This document shows, one piece after another, positions 16,354 through 33,722 of a stretch of DNA of 64,000 nucleotides. The notes under the pieces are model-generated. The model saw only the letters and a program-made list of their open reading frames with translations, was not told the origin of the DNA and did no database searches. Position 1 is the first letter of the stretch. The number at the start of each line of letters is the position of its first letter. Source of the DNA: Escherichia phage vB_EcoM_G2494; the sequence record MK327935.1. The stretch is one strand, 5' to 3'. The position numbers were made by a program, and so were the translations under genes.

Positions 16354-17830
16354 TTAAATGTCAAACAGGTCCGTAAGAGATGCCACTTTTTCATATTGCA
16401 GCTTTGCGGCCGTGGTAATGTTCTCCAGTGGTTTGACGAAAGTCTTATTAAACAACAAAGGCCAGTCTAACCACTTTAACACCTCTGATTCAATTTCTGG
16501 AGGAATACGAGTACCGGACAACCAACCAAAACAGATTTCTCCAAACGGATTTCGGTCTTTAAGCGGTACAATCATAACCTTCTCGCCCTCACGAATTGGA
16601 TCTAGTCCGAATTTTCGAGCATTACGATTATAACACAATACACTCTTAACCGCATACGGACAACCCTTAATCGGATACCCGTTTGAATCGCTGTATTTCT
16701 GTAGGTTGTTTGCAGATGATACCGCAGCAACCTCAAGATAGTCAAGTTTTCTAAACTCTTGCTCAAAAATACCGTAGTATTCCTGCAATGACTCTTCACC
16801 TTCCTGCAACATACGGCGAATACATTCTTTCAGTGATTTCTGACATGCTTTAGGGGTGGAGCTACGTTGCGTTTCCAAGCCCATGATTTTTAGCTTAGGT
16901 TCAGCAAAGCGCGTTCCTTCCATATCCCAAACATTAAGAGCATAACGCTTTTTACCCGTCCAGAATCCACCAATACCCGCAGATTTCAACGGGGGACCAG
17001 CAATTGCCTCTCGGTCCATAAACATCAAGTGCTCATAGTTGTTCATGTACTCGCATAACTCTCGATATCCTTTGTCGATAATCGGTTCCATTCGATGTTT
17101 ACCGAAATTATCAAGGAAGTCAACAAGTTTTTCGGTATCGTCGAAACGGTCTTCCCCGCCAACCTTATCAACAACATTGTTAACCAGCACATAAACGGAG
17201 TCAGTATCACAATAACGAACATATGCAAAATCGGTTGTTCCGCAAAGCTCGTTTAAGTATTCGTTAATCTTACGCTCAATCCACTGAATTGCAAGCTGAC
17301 CGAACAGTGTGATCGCACTAGCGTTACGGAGATCATAAAAACGGAATTTAGGATTCCCCAACGCACCATAAAGGGAGTTGATCAAAACTTTTCGAGAAAG
17401 CTGGTTTGTATTGCACAAGATCGACTCGTCTTTACATTCTTCCAGCAATTTCTCTAAGGCATCTTTACTTAATTCAGAAAGCATCGATTTAAACGCTTCA
17501 TCGAAGTCGTGACGCACTTCAACGCTATAGCTAATGGTTCCCCCATAAACATGATTTTCATCGTGTAGAATCGCTTTACATAGTTCAGCATTGCGATCAC
17601 ATGCCAACATCATGTTTTTGTACTGCTTACGCTGATCGAATACCTTTTTAATCTCAATCGGTACGATACCATGAATATCTTTTCTATACATCCATCCGTT
17701 AGGCGAGCAAGAATACTCATCACTCGGACGTGGTGCAGTTTTATTGATATACTCGTGCATCGGTGCAGCATCAAAAGATCCAGCGATTGTTTCCGGCGAA
17801 ATGTTAACCTGACGGATGATTGATGGATAC
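16354..17830 (-). CDS. 43: DNA polymerase gp43, 3' exon / C-terminal fragment
   Basis: Family-B motifs KVLINSLYGALG and YCDTDS; reading frame is open upstream of the listed Met back to YPSIIRQVNISPETI, the continuation of motif A. Confidence 0.85.
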
Positions 17831-18944
17831 CATTATGTTCAGCGCGGTTCGCTACTCCCGCGCCCGTTCTCTTGCGAACTGCTACATGTCACCATGTAGA
17901 TCAGACTATATCACATTCTCATAGAGAATCCTGCCATTTCGAATCGCTTGATTCTACTCTACTCGGTTCGTTACCCTTTCGATAGTCGTTGAACAACTGC
18001 ATCTTTAAGCTCATTTTGATCAAACGGTGTTCTCTTACAGTATCCGCTATAATTCTTAGCAAAAGGTTTCTTCTTACCAAAAATCTCTTTTCCTGAATTG
18101 TGTGCTTCAACAAGAAAATTCACCATTTCATCAAATGTGAAACTTGCAAATTTAGCATAAGTTTCATTACGTTTTGACATTATTTTACTCATAACTTCCG
18201 GTCGTTTAGACGCTGAATTTTCGCGTTTCTCGCCAGCATTAAATGATACCAACTCACCGGAAACATATCTAGGATCATCACAACTAACTCTAAACCGATT
18301 TCCTTCCTTATCCTTAACGATAACAGTATTCTTTAGCTTTTCTGCCATAGAATCAAGACCTTTTCGTATAGTGTCCTCATCAGCCCCGAAATATTTCTTT
18401 CCGCTCATATCGGTTCTGGCTTTTCCGGTCTTGTTTTCGGATATTTTCAGTCTAACTTCCTCTCGCTTGGCTGGGTTATTGTCTCCAGCGAATGCATCTT
18501 TGGTTAACGCCTTCACTTTATCGTCATAAGATCCTCTAGAGATGAAAGCATATGCTCTCTTGCATTCACCGTTATTGAATATTAAGCACAATAACCGATG
18601 CGCCTCGACGTGGTCTTCAAACTTAAGCCTAACAAGATTCCATTTATCTAACCGATATTCAGGGAACATTGACTTCGGGCATATATGATGCACCTCGGAA
18701 TATTCTTCACCCTGATACGGATTAGACACCAGTTTAATGTAGTCGTTTAATGCTTCCTCGTTATGTATTTCGTACTTTCTTAAAATGTCTTTCATCTCGC
18801 GCCTCCAATGTATATCAATATTTATATACATTATAAGACACGTTAGCTCAAAATGCAACTGCTGCTGATTGTCTCCTTAGAGATTTCCCAGCAATTAAGC
18901 AGGTTATTCGATCACTGTCACCAGTGAAAGCCCCATATCAGTTT
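17831..18944 (-). mobile_element. intervening sequence in gene 43: putative group I intron carrying an HNH homing endonuclease gene
   Basis: ~1.1 kb insertion between codons L and Y of motif A (DLTSL|YPS); 5' exon ends in T, insert ends in G; internal ORF has own late promoter; boundaries +/- a few nt. Confidence 0.6.
17971..18795 (-). CDS. HNH homing endonuclease (intron-encoded)
   Basis: Trimmed to MKDILRKYE... with GGAGG SD; His-Me finger motifs (EVHHICPKS...EDHVEAHRL); TATAAATA late-promoter motif ~20 nt upstream. Confidence 0.7.
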   Translation of the reverse strand: MKDILRKYEIHNEEALNDYIKLVSNPYQGEEYSEVHHICPKSMFPEYRLDKWNLVRLKFEDHVEAHRLLCLIFNNGECKRAYAFISRGSYDDKVKALTKDAFAGDNNPAKREEVRLKISENKTGKARTDMSGKKYFGADEDTIRKGLDSMAEKLKNTVIVKDKEGNRFRVSCDDPRYVSGELVSFNAGEKRENSASKRPEVMSKIMSKRNETYAKFASFTFDEMVNFLVEAHNSGKEIFGKKKPFAKNYSGYCKRTPFDQNELKDAVVQRLSKG

Positions 18945-20146
18945 AGGGAAGTAAGGTCAAAGCTCATCATCCAACGGTAAGCATTTGGCACAGGTTCTTT
19001 TACGAATGCGCCTGGATACGTCTGCTTAGGCTGTATCTTATTTTCCGGTACTACTTTACCCTCAGCTTTCAGAGATCCGAAGATAATAGCATCCCATACT
19101 TTCATCGGGTTATAAACATGGTTAAATTTAATCTTTGCATAGAAACATAGACTATACACAAGATCGATAAATCCACGCTTTTTATCAATCGCCAACACAC
19201 GATCAACGTCGCCGATGTTATAATCGATGTAAAGTTGATGGTTGTCATCACGCAATTTCTTTAACGGACCATCATAATCAACCTTACCGATTCCTGTCTC
19301 ATATTCAGCAACATAATCTAACGCATATGTTGGTTGAGTCGTAAAGCTAAATTTCTTGTACAGGTCAATATAATCAAGGCTTTCGATCCCCATGATCGTA
19401 AATGCTTCACGCTCGTTGCCAAAATCATCCTGTGAGATTCGGGATTTAATCTTACCGCACGGGCTTAGACGGTTAGCGGTTCTACTTCCGAACTTATTAC
19501 TGATACGTTTAATGATATATGGAATATCGAATGTTTCTGTGTTCCAGCCAGTGAAACCAACGGGTCGGTTTTCCTCAAAGAATCGGATGTATTCTAACAG
19601 CAATTCATCTTCTGTGTCATAGACGTTATAAACAACACGTTCTACAATATCTGGGCGAAGAATAGACTTGCTTGCTTCCCAAGATTCACCGTTTTTTCCT
19701 TTCAAATCAAATACAAAGAAACGATCATGTACGGAATCATAATGCGTAATTGCATCGATAGGATATTTCGCTTCTTCTGGTTTAGGAAATTCTGGGGCAG
19801 TGACCTCAATATCAACCCATGCTACACGGATTTTATTTCGGTCATATCGAATCTCTCCTTTATACGTATCGGACAGATAGGAGATGATAAAATCATCCAT
19901 CCCTAGTGCCTCTTGCCCCATCTCCCCCATCTTTTTACGCCATTTGTTGGCCTCGTTCATAGAGGGGAATTTTTTAGCAATGCAAGGCTTGCCATAGATA
20001 TCTTTATAATTCGTAACCATACCAGGCGCGGCATGATGAAATAAAGTTGGCGTATATTCAACGTAACGCTCTTGTTCTTGTCCAGCATCATCAATATAAC
20101 GCTCGTAGATCTTATCACCCACTCGCTCACATGACAGAAAATACAT
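18945..20146 (-). CDS. 43: DNA polymerase gp43, 5' exon / N-terminal fragment
   Basis: Collinear with T4 gp43 N-terminal and exonuclease domains up to MSFDLTSL; start set to ATG (MYFLSCERVGDKIYERYID) with GAAGGAG SD. Confidence 0.88.
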
Positions 20147-20177
20147 AATATAAACTCCTTCACTTACGAAAGACACT

Positions 20178-28444: not shown

Positions 28445-28652
28445 TTATTAAAGAAAATTCATCTTCTGATACATTATAGCTATGTGAGATTGTACCCGTA
28501 AAGACCTCAAGATCCGGTGATTTGATATTGCACGGATCGATAATCACCGGAACGCCGCAATCTCTCAAAAATAATTTGGCGAAATACGGCACGAGGTCAG
28601 TTTCAAACTCTGCTTCTTCCAGCAAACGGGAAATGTTAATTTTCAATCTCAT
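28419..28652 (-). CDS. hypothetical protein
   Basis: 77-aa ORF. Confidence 0.35.
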
Positions 28653-29169
28653 AAAATTGGTCCAGGCTAGGCAATTCCTCGGTCAATACATCTTCAACCT
28701 TTGGCGCTTTCGGTTTATTGACCGATTCCTCGTAGTTGTTGATTTTATCGTAAATGTCCTGTATGAATGCCTCATCAGCAATCTGGCACATATCAGCGTC
28801 GCGTTCGTCATATACATGATGCACAAAATATTTGTATTTTGCGGCTGTCGCTGTTCTCTCTTTTTTAATGCGCTGTACAAAAGCATTAAAGCACGCTTGC
28901 GTGATGTAAGCATGAGGATTTTTATACTTTGTCTCGTCAAAATTAATCAAACCCTTGACCGCCGCTTCGATTCCGTCGTCGATCATTTCTTCGCGCCATG
29001 TTTGACTATAACCAGAAAAGTTAAAACGACGTGATAGATTTTTAGAGATTTGCATAATTGCTAGGCCGATTTGATCGCTCATTGGAACTTGCCGACCTTC
29101 TGCTGCAATTTGTTGTTTCCAACGGCAAATTTCTTCGTAAAGCTCTTTATTGTTTACATAATCAGACAC
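28636..29169 (-). CDS. 55: late-transcription sigma factor
   Basis: 177 aa; long identical blocks with T4 gp55 ([47 protein letters not shown]). Confidence 0.9.
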
Positions 29170-29209
29170 TTCGCACCCTCGCTATTATTTAGGAAATAAC
29201 CCTTTCGGG

Positions 29210-30679
29210 CTATTCCCCATTGCCATTATACTTTCTTTGCTTAGTTATCCACACTCTAACCATCTCTACAGATTCACCGTCAGACGGATCAAGAGTTTTT
29301 CCTTTTTTCTTCATGCGGTACTTAAATCCGTTAAATCTTGCATTCTCTTGCTCGTTAAAGTCGAACATCTTTTTAAATGATTTTCGCCCTTTACGCTCAC
29401 CACATTCTAGCGGAATCATTCGGTCTGTTATTACATTGGCATTAGGTAGAAACGTTTTTAGATAATCTACCAACGCCCAATCAGGAACATATAGATTAAC
29501 ATTCTCCTTGCTCTCGTTGTCTCTCAGGTTACAACGCAAACATAATTGAAATGCTGGTTCCAGATAATCAGACACATGACGCGCTTTCAAAAACTCATTT
29601 GTCGGGAGATCACAACTATTAGCAAGACCTTTTAAAATATCAATCTCCCATCGTTGAGGGTTAAAGCTGAACATCACAGCAACATTTTTATGATGAATGT
29701 AAGAGTTAAGACCATAAGACCCGTAAGGTATCCGCTCGCCAATACCATTTGTGCACGCTTCACGGTCCCGATTCACGGTATAAATGAAGTCATCACCACA
29801 TTCATTTTTAACCATATCAACAAGACGTTCAAAGGTATTGTTTGTTTCTGACTGGTGACGCGACCATCGTTCAGAGTCCGTCATAAGGATGATATTAACT
29901 CTATCTGTATTTTTATACTCTTTGAAATATAGTCTGGATTCTAGCGCACTCGGAACAAAATCGCAATTTGCATAGTATCGTAGATACTTCCCACTATATG
30001 TATCAAAGAGATTTGCACATGCTATCGTAACCTTTTTAAAGTCTCCCCACGTACCGTGTTTGTTATCGTTCAAGAAAACAATTTTCGACCCATTCTTCCG
30101 GTGTCCTTCGTTATGTTTTACCATAACGTTGATTTTCTTCTCTAATAACGCCTCATAAAGCCCTCTAAGAGAAGAATCGATCATATCAGTACCATCCTTT
30201 GCACTTTCTATCTTTTCTTTGATAGCGGCCTTCTCAGAGTCTTTTAGAACTAAGTTCTGTAGGCATTCCGATTCGTCGGCGATTGGTTCGCAATGCTTCG
30301 TGATAAGTTCAAGATTAGACTTAAACGGATACTCATTAAATTCAACCAGTTGAGGAACTTCATCAATGTAAAGAGCATATTCACCAAAAATTTTTGAACG
30401 TTCCATATTAGATAACGCTGTATGTGTAATGAATATCACATCAGCACCATCTTTAACTGATTGCATTATCGACGCTTGCACTGTCTTAAGGCTTCTTAGT
30501 CTTGTGCTATCAATCAAGACAGCACGACCGCCCATTCTTTTAAACTTATTGTAAGATTGTTCACTTAAAACACGAGATGGCGAAGCAATAACCGCTTTTT
30601 CTTTTGTCTCTAGGACGTGGGAAAGTATAGCATCAGTTTTCCCCGCCGCTGGCAATGCGATTAATGTTTCAATCTTCAT
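29210..30679 (-). CDS. P-loop NTPase of unknown function (helicase-like Walker A/B)
   Basis: 489 aa; Walker A ALPAAGKT near N-terminus and Walker B LYIDEV ~100 aa later; no T4 counterpart recognised at this locus. Confidence 0.55.
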   Translation of the reverse strand: MKIETLIALPAAGKTDAILSHVLETKEKAVIASPSRVLSEQSYNKFKRMGGRAVLIDSTRLRSLKTVQASIMQSVKDGADVIFITHTALSNMERSKIFGEYALYIDEVPQLVEFNEYPFKSNLELITKHCEPIADESECLQNLVLKDSEKAAIKEKIESAKDGTDMIDSSLRGLYEALLEKKINVMVKHNEGHRKNGSKIVFLNDNKHGTWGDFKKVTIACANLFDTYSGKYLRYYANCDFVPSALESRLYFKEYKNTDRVNIILMTDSERWSRHQSETNNTFERLVDMVKNECGDDFIYTVNRDREACTNGIGERIPYGSYGLNSYIHHKNVAVMFSFNPQRWEIDILKGLANSCDLPTNEFLKARHVSDYLEPAFQLCLRCNLRDNESKENVNLYVPDWALVDYLKTFLPNANVITDRMIPLECGERKGRKSFKKMFDFNEQENARFNGFKYRMKKKGKTLDPSDGESVEMVRVWITKQRKYNGNGE

Positions 30680-30984
30680 TAGAAACCCTTACGTCGTGCT
30701 TTCTGGCATTTCTTGATCATTTTATCAGAAATTTCGCGCTTCGGTGCAATCTCTTTCACACCGAAAGCACTAATGCCAAATTCAGAGAGAATATATTCAA
30801 CCAACAATTCACGCACACGCGCTTTACCGATATTCACGCCGTTATTTTTCAGATATGTCTGGCCTTCGACTTGCATCAGATCTAAATCTGCGTCGGTAAT
30901 ATTGATTTCTTCCATGCGCCCAAATCGAGAATAAACCATGTGTGCGATTGCATTGTGTACTAACATAATATATTCCTCACTCAA
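30679..30984 (-). CDS. hypothetical protein
   Basis: 101-aa ORF abutting the start of the NTPase gene. Confidence 0.4.
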   Translation of the reverse strand: MSEEYIMLVHNAIAHMVYSRFGRMEEINITDADLDLMQVEGQTYLKNNGVNIGKARVRELLVEYILSEFGISAFGVKEIAPKREISDKMIKKCQKARRKGF

Positions 30985-31135
30985 GAATTACTTAATGATA
31001 CTTACTTTACCAGATCCATGACAATGAGCGCAACACCCATCACCACGCAATCCTGTTCCGTTACAGTGTTTACACTTCTTCAACGGTAAAGCCATTATAG
31101 CAAATAAAGCAATAATGAACACCGAAACTAAATTC

Positions 31136-31405
31136 TCAATAATCATAAATCTCCCTCAGTTCTTTATAGCCTCCAATGTGCTCGTTGTCAATGAATATCT
31201 GGGGGTATACAAATCGGAGGCTCTTTGAGTTCAGCCTCCCCGCCAGTTCTTCAATCATATCACGGTCGGGAATAATGTCAACCCCAACCTGCTTGAATAC
31301 TGGTTTAAGTGTATACGGAATACCCAGATCATCCAGTAGCTTCATTGCACTAATACAACCATAACAATGATAAGCCTCTTTCGGTATGCCGTATATCTCG
31401 ATCAT
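31136..31405 (-). CDS. nrdH: glutaredoxin-like protein (NrdH-type)
   Basis: 89 aa; CYGC redox motif near N-terminus, glutaredoxin fold pattern; in nrd gene neighbourhood. Confidence 0.65.
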   Translation of the reverse strand: MIEIYGIPKEAYHCYGCISAMKLLDDLGIPYTLKPVFKQVGVDIIPDRDMIEELAGRLNSKSLRFVYPQIFIDNEHIGGYKELREIYDY

Positions 31406-31902
31406 TTCTCAGCCTTTAATCTTTCTAGTTCTTCTTCCAGTTCCTTGATCCGTCGGTCACGTTCAAAGTCACGCTGCAACTTAGTGGCGAATACTCGTTT
31501 AAACTGATTGTAATCATCGATTTTAAACACTTCTTCTTCGCCATAGCGACGCACAGAAACTTCGTAGTTATTGAAGAATTGTTGCATCATTGCTTCGGAT
31601 GATAGTTCTGCTGATACTACTTTAAAATATTGATCTTCGGTAGGTGAAAACCAATTACAAGCATAAAGATAAACCTTTTCATTGTCTGGACACTGGTAAG
31701 CCTTACCATCGATTTCAATCACAGAAACATATTCAGGTATACTAGATGAATCAATAGCTAAGACTTTAAACGCACGGTCCCCGATAAACTCGGAGATCAC
31801 ACGATTCGCATCACTGGTTGCAAATGCTTTACGCGCTTGTTCGTTTTTCCACTGATAGGTCATACCAACAACAAACATATTACCAACCTCGCTCTTTACC
31901 AA
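31402..31902 (-). CDS. hypothetical protein, paralog family A
   Basis: 166 aa; shares GxTYxWK N-terminal module and charged helical C-terminal tail with the next three ORFs. Confidence 0.5.
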   Translation of the reverse strand: MVKSEVGNMFVVGMTYQWKNEQARKAFATSDANRVISEFIGDRAFKVLAIDSSSIPEYVSVIEIDGKAYQCPDNEKVYLYACNWFSPTEDQYFKVVSAELSSEAMMQQFFNNYEVSVRRYGEEEVFKIDDYNQFKRVFATKLQRDFERDRRIKELEEELERLKAEK

Positions 31903-32704
31903 TCAAAAATTCAACTTCACGACGTTTAATGTCTTCTTGAAGGTCTTTAATCTTCTGGCGATCTTGCATGATTTCATCCATCTTGTCAAGTGCTGCGATG
32001 AAATCATCGAAACGTTCAAAGGTTTTACCTTCATTTGCTTCGCCAAATTTAACCATTCTCAGGCCGTAACGACTACTAAACAGACGTTTCAACTGTCCAA
32101 CGATTTTAGAATCAGTGGTTATAACTTCCAATTCTTCTACTTCACGAAAGAATTTTCTATCAGAATCAATAAACCAGCTAGTTCCTTTATGGTCTCTATC
32201 TTCGGTTGCGCTCATTAGAGTATGGTCTTTACCATCAATTTCAATTACATCAATTTGCCCACATGGACTAACATTTTTAACAGTAAAAGGTCTATAATTT
32301 ATTGCTCGTGCAATAACATAATTAAGGTTAGATACGTTTTCAGCATAATGGCAGAAGTCTGTCATAGCATTCGCATCTTTCCAAGTATAAGTTTTACCAA
32401 CTTCCCATTTCTGGGGAACTTCTTCAACTTCACGAAAGAATTTTCGATCGAATGGACTAAAGAAATATGTTGCAGTCCAAATGTCTTTTCCTGTAGCAGT
32501 TTTTGCCGTATGATAAACACCGTCTAGCTCTATTGCATTAATCCAACCGTTACCCTCGATCTCGATGATGGTAAATGGCTTGTCACCAATAGCTGCACTA
32601 ATATCGCTGTTAAGTGGAGAAAGAACACCTTCTCCGTTAGTAATAAACTCAGTTTTAGCGTTTTCATCTTTCCAGGTGTAAGTTTTACCAATTTCCCATT
32701 TCAT
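31880..32704 (-). CDS. hypothetical protein, paralog family A (internally duplicated)
   Basis: 274 aa; two tandem copies of module W-E-x-GKTYTWKD ... FSPFDRKFFREVEE. Confidence 0.5.
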   Translation of the reverse strand: MKWEIGKTYTWKDENAKTEFITNGEGVLSPLNSDISAAIGDKPFTIIEIEGNGWINAIELDGVYHTAKTATGKDIWTATYFFSPFDRKFFREVEEVPQKWEVGKTYTWKDANAMTDFCHYAENVSNLNYVIARAINYRPFTVKNVSPCGQIDVIEIDGKDHTLMSATEDRDHKGTSWFIDSDRKFFREVEELEVITTDSKIVGQLKRLFSSRYGLRMVKFGEANEGKTFERFDDFIAALDKMDEIMQDRQKIKDLQEDIKRREVEFLIGKERGW

Positions 32705-32716
32705 AATATATTCCCC

Positions 32717-33196
32717 TTAACCGATTTTATCAAGTTCGTTTAATGCTTTCTCTGCTTCCTGTATAGCTTGCACTCTTTCCGGCATTTTGTCAAGAAAATC
32801 TTTCAACTCTTCAAAACTGGAGATATGACGCAAGGCATTAGCACCGATAGCCGCATGTGATTTGCATTCAAAGCGAATTTTATAATTATCCATCGCCAAT
32901 TTGAGAAGATCAATTAATTTAGATTCTTCTGGAATAATAATTTCTTCAAATCTGCTACGGTCATGATCCAGAAACCAACAAGATAGACCTACATCGGTTG
33001 AACTCATATAAGTTCCATCATGAAGATAAACAGACCGCACGTATCCTTTTTTCGCATCAACCGACGCAACTTTAAACGGTAATCGCAGATATTTCAAATA
33101 ATCAACATCATACCATTTAAAAAATTGGTTTGCATCTTTTACATCTTTCCACGCATAGGTCTTACCAGCTTCCCATTTCATAATATCATCTCTCAT
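32717..33196 (-). CDS. hypothetical protein, paralog family A
   Basis: 159 aa; MKWEAGKTYAWKD module. Confidence 0.5.
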   Translation of the reverse strand: MRDDIMKWEAGKTYAWKDVKDANQFFKWYDVDYLKYLRLPFKVASVDAKKGYVRSVYLHDGTYMSSTDVGLSCWFLDHDRSRFEEIIIPEESKLIDLLKLAMDNYKIRFECKSHAAIGANALRHISSFEELKDFLDKMPERVQAIQEAEKALNELDKIG

Positions 33197-33722
33197 TTTT
33201 GATACGTGATTCTAATTGGATCATACGGTCGCGCGTTTGCTTGTATTCGCGGATAGCACCGATTCGGCTAGGCATACCATCCAGTACGCTCTTAATCCCT
33301 TCTAGGGTAGTGATTTTAGCAATACTATTATGTAATCCCATCTTATCGATTAACTGAATGTCGTAGGCTTCCATAAGCAGACCCAGACGTTCTAAAGTTA
33401 GGTCTTCTTCTTTTTCTTCCGATTCTGGAATCTTAGGTTCAATAGTAACTTCGGTAAAGAAACGACGCTCACCAGACCAAAACCACACACCGGAACAGCC
33501 AATAGGGGATTCTTTTAACGTCATAGAGTCGTAACCACTGCCGATAATAGTAATTTCTCTAACATCACCATCATCGTCAAGGTCTTCTACCCTAAACGGG
33601 CGACCAGCCAACAAGTCAACAATACATCTGTTAATAGACGACGAAAATTTAGTCAGTTCGGCTTTCGACGCTTCGCATTCAATCTTGTAAGTTTTACCAA
33701 CTTCCCATTCCATAATAATCAC
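33186..33722 (-). CDS. hypothetical protein, paralog family A
   Basis: 178 aa; MEWEVGKTYKIE module, charged C-terminal helix. Confidence 0.5.
   Translation of the reverse strand: MIIMEWEVGKTYKIECEASKAELTKFSSSINRCIVDLLAGRPFRVEDLDDDGDVREITIIGSGYDSMTLKESPIGCSGVWFWSGERRFFTEVTIEPKIPESEEKEEDLTLERLGLLMEAYDIQLIDKMGLHNSIAKITTLEGIKSVLDGMPSRIGAIREYKQTRDRMIQLESRIKNER

Follow-up and report, generated by a model that had tools for sequence, protein, structure and literature searches.

We analysed a 64,000-nucleotide stretch of Escherichia phage vB_EcoM_G2494 (MK327935.1; hereafter the window) and found that a 489-amino-acid open reading frame (ORF) near the late sigma factor gene 55, here ORF489, encodes a protein with the motifs of a superfamily 2 (SF2) helicase and a predicted XPD/DinG-like fold that lacks an iron-sulfur cluster. 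We lean towards the view that ORF489 is an ATP-driven SF2 helicase or translocase, accessory to DNA replication or recombination in T4-like phages. This role is the best supported of those considered because relatives of ORF489 are built into primase-helicase and helix-turn-helix (HTH)-helicase replication proteins. A preliminary description of the locus, made from the DNA letters and their translations, had guessed at either a replication or recombination accessory or a counter-defence factor; the relatives' fusions now back the former, and the latter gained no support.

We assessed conservation across 42 ORF489 homologues, down to 32% identity, and in an outgroup alignment of more distant relatives (A3). 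Fifty-six columns are invariant across the 42 homologues. The sequence carries the SF2 motif set I (GKT), II (DExx), III and VI (Q/R/R), the last with atypical spacing, and the gene and its parts are laid out as follows.

29210-30679, minus strand: ORF489, putative SF2 helicase with predicted XPD/DinG-like fold and no iron-sulfur cluster; ATG start
30635-30658, minus strand: motif I (Walker A), ALPAAGKT, residues 8-15
30554-30586, minus strand: motif Ia-like, ASPSRVLSEQS, residues 32-42
30353-30373, minus strand: motif II (Walker B), LYIDEVP, residues 103-109
30035-30352, minus strand: ~105 residues (110-215) inserted into the first motor domain after motif II and before motif III, from the secondary structure of the model
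30008-30034, minus strand: motif III-like, VTIACANL, residues 216-224
29657-29725, minus strand: motif V region, YGSYGLN...NVAVMFSFNP, residues 319-341
29522-29551, minus strand: motif VI-like, FQLCLRCNLR (Q-x3-R-x3-R), residues 377-386
29213-29392, minus strand: basic helical C-terminal tail, residues 430-489, present in T4-like forms only, from the helices of the model

In motif I, P10, G13, K14 and T15 are invariant across the homologues, and the G and K remain so in the outgroup; in motif II the same holds for L103, D106, E107 and P109, of which D and E show no variation in the outgroup either. The preliminary description was right to call the protein a helicase-type P-loop nucleoside triphosphatase (NTPase), although Walker A occupies residues 8-15, not 9-16; the LYIDEV that it placed about 100 residues later lies at residues 103-108, 95 further on. 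In the motif Ia-like segment, assigned by eye against the SF2 consensus, S33, L38 and S42 are invariant and R36 and Q41 at least 90% conserved, and a motif Ib-like VIFITH is also present. T218 and N223 of the motif III-like segment are at least 90% conserved, and the matching A of “LAANI” is invariant in the outgroup. Motif V has invariant G323, N325 and N340, with L324 and P341 at least 90% conserved and “HGLN” conserved in the outgroup; the motif VI-like segment has invariant F377, Q378, L379, C380, R382 and R386, its Q, R and R being invariant in the outgroup as well. The C-terminal tail, modelled as helices at residues 443-458 and 468-486, contains invariant E445 and W477.

Profile libraries recognise this protein at the margin. 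The Pfam DEAD model matched residues 11-130 of ORF489 barely above its cut-off (27.3 bits against 26), and a Pfam scan of all 42 members returned DEAD and AAA_34 only among helicase and P-loop NTPase models; NCBIfam gave no match for ORF489. A single-sequence phmmer search of all PDB chains gave no match, and the 42-sequence profile found no helicase among the same chains, its sole match being a non-significant one to an IclR regulator (E = 0.72). Automated annotation (PGAP, UniRef) already labels the Krischvirus protein a “DEAD/DEAH box helicase,” and one phage record reads “putative helicase”; the gene, earlier called uncharacterised, is thus so experimentally but already bears a helicase label.

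Structure prediction gave a clearer picture. From the 42-sequence alignment AlphaFold gave a confident model (pLDDT 87.5, pTM 0.75), which predicts two tandem RecA-like domains; in a Foldseek search the nearest folds to this model were DinG, CasDinG or XPD, which made up 17 of the 18 top hits, including all of the first 16. These matches align 319-369 residues of the model, and other SF2 helicases ~240 (80-130 fewer). XPD/DinG helicases have an Arch domain between motifs II and III, and the insertion at residues 110-215 of the model may be its equivalent. The 4Fe-4S domain of XPD/Rad3/DinG helicases, held by four cysteines between motifs Ia and II, is in contrast absent: ORF489 has no cysteine in residues 43-100, and its sole invariant cysteines are C130 and C380. 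Some DinG relatives, such as CasDinG and the DinG of S. aureus, likewise lack an iron-sulfur cluster. ORF489 further differs from XPD/Rad3/DinG helicases, including the CRISPR type IV CasDinG, in its length (489 amino acids against 550-740) and in the spacing of motif VI. Analogy with XPD/DinG suggests 5'->3' polarity.

Among 1.84 billion cluster representatives, searching with the profile revealed 1,331 relatives of ORF489 at E <= 1e-3, 766 of them at E <= 1e-10, in two size classes of ~450-600 and ~700-900 amino acids. The long relatives have a C-terminal extension of ~350 residues, and most of them place the helicase first and an archaeo-eukaryotic-type primase (AEP) domain last. Pfam and PDB sequence searches did not recognise this extension, and fold search alone identified it as AEP-like; its conserved motifs are similar to the catalytic signature of primases (LDxD..., ...RxRV..., GxDxSK), and UniRef names one homologue of it “Primase C-terminal 1 domain.” One relative (P0130) has the reverse order, with an AEP-like N-terminus, a zf-CHC2-type finger, the helicase and an HTH-like tail. 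Its primase and zinc-finger parts were recognised by visual inspection, the N-terminal region having no Pfam domain; its helicase aligned with the ORF489 family profile in hhalign with a probability of 99.5% (E = 6e-23, 402 columns). A third arrangement occurs on two contigs from a viral database (L018 and L019), where an integrase is followed by two small ORFs and then by a 484-amino-acid family member with a C-terminal HTH_23 domain, to which the tail of the T4-like forms did not align; this is where an integrative element usually has its replication initiator. The Agrobacterium jumbo phage Atu_ph07 (MF403008.1, 150714-152489) also encodes a relative, matching residues 17-637 of a long form (P0068), so that the match goes beyond the helicase core and takes in the beginning of the primase-like extension.

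This family has probably been noticed before. Kazlauskas et al. (2018; PMC5862659) describe “Prim + zf-CHC2 + VOG(1685/9714)-like helicase” proteins, in which the helicase is fused to All3500-type AEP primases, give uncharacterised proteins of some T4-like phages and SPbeta as the closest homologues of this remote SF2-like domain, and predict that viruses and plasmids have a new family of helicases. The ORF489 family is probably that VOG(1685/9714)-like family, whose description in the paper it fits. P0130 apparently shares the published architecture. The family as described there is primase-fused, whereas the phage form represented by ORF489 has no primase, and the helicase-first order of most long relatives is the reverse of the published one and was not found mentioned in the accessible part of that paper. 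What goes beyond the automated helicase label and this 2018 prediction is the predicted XPD/DinG-like build without a cluster, the family's size, the fusions that put the helicase first and the AEP domain last, the HTH forms beside integrases, and the recognition of the neighbouring “partner” ORF as gp55.2.

We suggest that ORF489, with two RecA-like motors and an accessory domain inserted as in XPD/DinG but without an iron-sulfur cluster, would be an ATP-driven DNA helicase or translocase; we infer both its activity and its DNA substrate. The primase-fused and HTH-tailed relatives most likely act as the replication helicase of a mobile element. The stand-alone copy just upstream of gene 55 would be read early with its minus-strand stretch, as that stretch is in T4 relatives, its translation coupled to that of 55.2, and may serve as a fourth, accessory helicase beside gp41, Dda and UvsW in replication initiation, fork progression or recombination. 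On this reading it would share with those three T4 enzymes the character of a phage-encoded DNA helicase in the same replication and recombination system, and with UvsW membership of SF2. Phage JSE encodes Dda and gp41 besides its ORF489 homologue, so ORF489 would be an extra helicase; replacement of Dda was rejected on the same grounds. A more far-reaching proposal, which we regard as unlikely, makes ORF489 the founding member, from cultured phages, of a separate helicase family, XPD/DinG-shaped and free of iron-sulfur clusters, that would supply many mobile elements with their replicative or initiator helicase, paired with AEP primases in either order, and that in T4-like phages would offer a second start or restart route independent of gp41/gp59, lost by T4. 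If true, a replication module would have been missed by sixty years of T4 genetics, since T4 lost it.

Some 6 kb around ORF489 are 98-99% identical in DNA to RB49/JSE-type phages, and the phage of the window is an RB49/JSE-like Krischvirus of the family Straboviridae. Gene order is as in JSE (47, a-gt.4, a-gt.5, 55, the 489-amino-acid hypothetical ORF, “gp55.2,” a 52-amino-acid ORF, nrdH), and every gene of the series is on the minus strand. Gene 55 and nrdH, the two flanking genes named in the preliminary description, were both confirmed.

28636-29169, minus strand: late sigma factor gp55 gene; GTG start
31136-31405, minus strand: glutaredoxin/NrdH gene

ORF489 is a real gene, well beyond chance, because it matches PHROG 2467 (E = 1.8e-174), has homologues in 243 phage records and the 56 invariant columns described above, differs from JSE at 18 codons of which 16 are synonymous and 2 non-synonymous, and equals its neighbours in G+C content. 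No integrase, repeats or homing endonuclease flanks it.

Among cultured phages the gene is nearly confined to T4-like phages, the source of almost all of the 243 records. Identity is at least 95% within Krischvirus and 34-42% in phages of Erwinia, Proteus, Morganella, Serratia, Cronobacter, Aeromonas, Citrobacter, Klebsiella, Enterobacter and Yersinia and in RB43. Gene 55 directly follows the helicase gene in Krischvirus, Aeromonas phage Aes012 and Erwinia phage Cronus; in RB43 the helicase gene is still adjacent to 55.2, with the pair relocated beside gene 34. RB14 has the order nrdH, 55.6, 55.5, 55.4, 55.3, 55.2, 55.1, one more ORF, 55, and ORF489 therefore occupies the T-even place of 55.1 and one other small ORF. 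The earlier statement that T4 has no counterpart of the 489-amino-acid gene thus holds, RB14 having 55.1-55.6 and other small ORFs at this place, and presence across T4-like phages is patchy, the T-even phages being without it. This distribution and synteny suggest an old gene of the T4-like group that was lost by the T4 and RB69 lineages. Two simpler correlates were rejected: a tie to phages with unmodified cytosine, because Cronus (Tevenvirinae) has an alpha-glucosyltransferase together with the helicase; and a tie to absent MotA and middle promoters, because Aeromonas phage 44RR has MotA (Nolan et al., 2006) and Aeromonas T4-like phages, in a check that did not include 44RR itself, carry the helicase.

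Close homologues are not host genes, as the scan of bacterial genomes gave only two loci, both apparently on T4-like phage contigs. These encode full-length homologues of 35-36% identity, one in a Bacilli metagenome-assembled genome (L010, JBOFGC010000083.1) and one in Flagellimonas marina (L011, NZ_JBHSCL010000010.1), and both contigs are probably of phage origin, having ended up in bacterial genomes through binning or assembly. A plasmid scan returned just two weak partial matches, on Sinorhizobium megaplasmids. The F. marina contig measures 178 kb, as large as a T4-like phage genome.

The small ORF next to ORF489 proved to be a known gene.

30679-30966, minus strand: homologue of T4 gene 55.2 (DUF7570), 95 amino acids from ATG 30966; from Pfam, tblastn and the JSE annotation
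30677-30681, minus strand: TAATG, in which the 55.2 stop overlaps the helicase start

The 101-amino-acid ORF reported to abut the start of ORF489 does exist (30679-30984, minus strand, from a TTG), but ATG 30966, giving 95 amino acids, is probably the likelier start than TTG 30984, because GAGGAA precedes it and a 95-amino-acid product is annotated in JSE and W115. Judged by its sequence, this ORF is a gp55.2 homologue: it matches Pfam PF24454 (DUF7570) with E = 1.4e-28 (99.2 bits, cut-off 27), is 42-47% identical to the “55.2” of RB14 and RB32 by tblastn, is annotated as “gp55.2” in JSE, and resembles T4 gene 55.2 in its position relative to nrdH and gene 55; NCBIfam gave no match for it. The search for homology to a known T4-family gene thus succeeded for the small ORF, and found no T-even counterpart for ORF489. 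Homologues of 55.2 occur in 1,092 phage records, many T-even relatives among them; for records named Escherichia phage, 602 match 55.2 and only 53 match the helicase. The small ORF is therefore not the dedicated partner that it was taken for but one of T4's 55.x ORFs, since its 1,092 records stand against 243 for the helicase and most are without the latter. T4 gp55.2 inhibits E. coli topoisomerase I and raises phage fitness (PMC4396842); the inhibition was demonstrated with the T4 protein. The TAATG overlap suggests that translation of the helicase is coupled to that of 55.2; in RB43 the two genes overlap here by 4 bases, and in Aes012 55.2 lies further upstream, with four ORFs between it and the helicase gene. 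Where Krischvirus and RB43 have 55.2, Aes012 has a 191-amino-acid hypothetical ORF (L005, 2929-3504) that overlaps the helicase start.

Early or delayed-early expression of ORF489, together with 55.2 and gene 55, is likely, because the gene lies within an unbroken minus-strand run, no late promoter TATAAATA occurs within 10 kb of it, sigma-70-like consensus sites lie upstream (e.g. TTGACA-16-TATGAT, 31281-31254), and a terminator-like hairpin appears only after a-gt.4 (28120-28093). Late expression was rejected for want of the promoter over that distance. A similar general view was taken for novel ORFs in such regions by Nolan et al. (2006). A further hairpin stands at the boundary with gene 55.

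29192-29217, minus strand: hairpin of 11 bp and a GAAA loop, lying across the helicase stop codon; from RNA folding

It lies ~25 nucleotides upstream of the gene 55 GTG start and folds with -22.1 kcal/mol (z = -3.26), equalled by none of 200 shuffles. No U run follows, and it is therefore not a classical terminator; it could act on mRNA stability or on translation of gene 55.

Several points weigh against an accessory replication helicase of XPD/DinG-like build. The Pfam scan of the 42 members returned no XPD/DinG family model, PDB searches with the single sequence and the profile gave no XPD/DinG link, and hhalign against E. coli DinG gave a probability of 0.6%, that is, no sequence relationship; for this last reason we speak of a predicted XPD/DinG-like fold and stop short of placing ORF489 in that family. 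The Q-x3-R-x3-R spacing of motif VI departs from the canonical Q-x2-G-R-x2-R, so that catalytic competence is not guaranteed. Herpesvirus UL9 is a 3'->5' helicase. The polarity of ORF489 is hence uncertain, because Kazlauskas et al. (2018; PMC5862659) liken the sister group pVOG9714 to UL9. The case for early expression draws only on gene orientation and consensus matches. The T4-like forms are without the primase and HTH modules of their relatives, so their role may have changed, and T4 lives without the gene, which is thus probably dispensable on laboratory hosts. A literature search returned nothing specific on PHROG 2467, VOG1685 or the Krischvirus helicase.

Three other explanations were weighed, each less supported than an accessory role in replication. 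ORF489 might be a counter-defence or host-takeover helicase, kept not for phage replication itself but to displace or disarm a host immune or DNA-bound complex, for instance by removing R-loops or nucleoprotein filaments. Its patchy distribution among T4-like genera would suit this, as would a variable region that in T4 has host-directed genes, 55.2 acting on topoisomerase I and 55.1 being another characterised ORFan (PMC4396842); some structural neighbours, too, unwind RNA/DNA hybrids, as PMC10450177 describes for CasDinG. The relatives, however, are fused to primases or to DNA-binding tails beside integrases and none to a known anti-defence module, and a locus kept in distant genera with invariant catalytic motifs better suits a housekeeping accessory enzyme. 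PADLOC, whose library does not cover anti-defence genes, gave one weak, sub-threshold match for ORF489. We consider this role improbable.

Less probable again is a functional pair with gp55.2, in which gp55.2, by blocking host topoisomerase I, would favour negative supercoiling and R-loops, and the co-translated helicase would resolve or exploit these on phage DNA. DinG-type helicases unwind R-loops. That CasDinG does so is supported by PMC10450177, T4 gp55.2 is a topoisomerase I inhibitor (PMC4396842), and the two genes overlap stop to start as TAATG in Krischvirus and are adjacent and overlapping in RB43 even away from gene 55. Such overlaps are nevertheless common across these tightly packed genomes, Aes012 has four ORFs between the two genes, and most 55.2 genes work without the helicase (1,092 records against 243). 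The last and least probable explanation, which we think very doubtful, is that ORF489 is the relic of a captured mobile-element replication gene, with little, no or a selfish function. Integrative elements and primase fusions are indeed where the closest non-T4 relatives occur, the accessory modules have been lost from the T4-like form, and T-even phages do without the gene. Against this stand strong purifying selection, with catalytic residues invariant across genera at 32-49% identity, a G+C content the same as that of the neighbours, conservation of the locus in distant genera, and flanks free of integrase, repeats and homing endonuclease.

T4 is the textbook model of phage DNA replication, and if ORF489 is an accessory replication helicase then many relatives, including RB49-like, RB43-like, Aeromonas, Proteus, Serratia and Erwinia phages, would carry a fourth helicase that T4 lacks. 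The helicase core, present in ~1,300 sequence clusters with AEP-type primases or the DNA-binding tails of integrative elements, would then represent an unstudied helicase-primase system of mobile DNA, for which RB49-type phages, which grow on E. coli K-12 and are easily engineered, provide a convenient model. If it is an ordinary accessory helicase, the gain is one of annotation, “SF2 DNA helicase, XPD/DinG-like fold” for “hypothetical protein,” and the label “gp55.2” for its neighbour.

Other features of the window were recorded on the minus strand. One is the small ORF next to nrdH.

30988-31146, minus strand: 52-amino-acid ORF between nrdH and 55.2, matching PHROG 3931

It encodes an N-terminal helix of hydrophobic character and, after it, two CxxCxGxG motifs, the DnaJ-type zinc-finger pattern, and is called a “putative membrane protein” in the W115 annotation. 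Between nrdH and nrdG (31402-33722, minus strand) lie four successive genes of 166, 274, 159 and 178 amino acids; an N-terminal “W(E/K)xGKTYxWKD” module common to all four, and present twice in the 274-amino-acid protein, makes them a family of tandem paralogues, to which Pfam gave no match. DNA polymerase gene 43 (16354-20176, minus strand) is in two ORFs, 18938-20176 (412 amino acids) and 16354-17760 (468 amino acids), and JSE likewise annotates two “DNA polymerase” coding sequences. The halves are separated by a 295-amino-acid ORF (17971-18858) with no Pfam hit, in a gap whose length is unlike that in JSE, and a late-promoter-like TATAAATA lies inside this ORF at 18819-18826.

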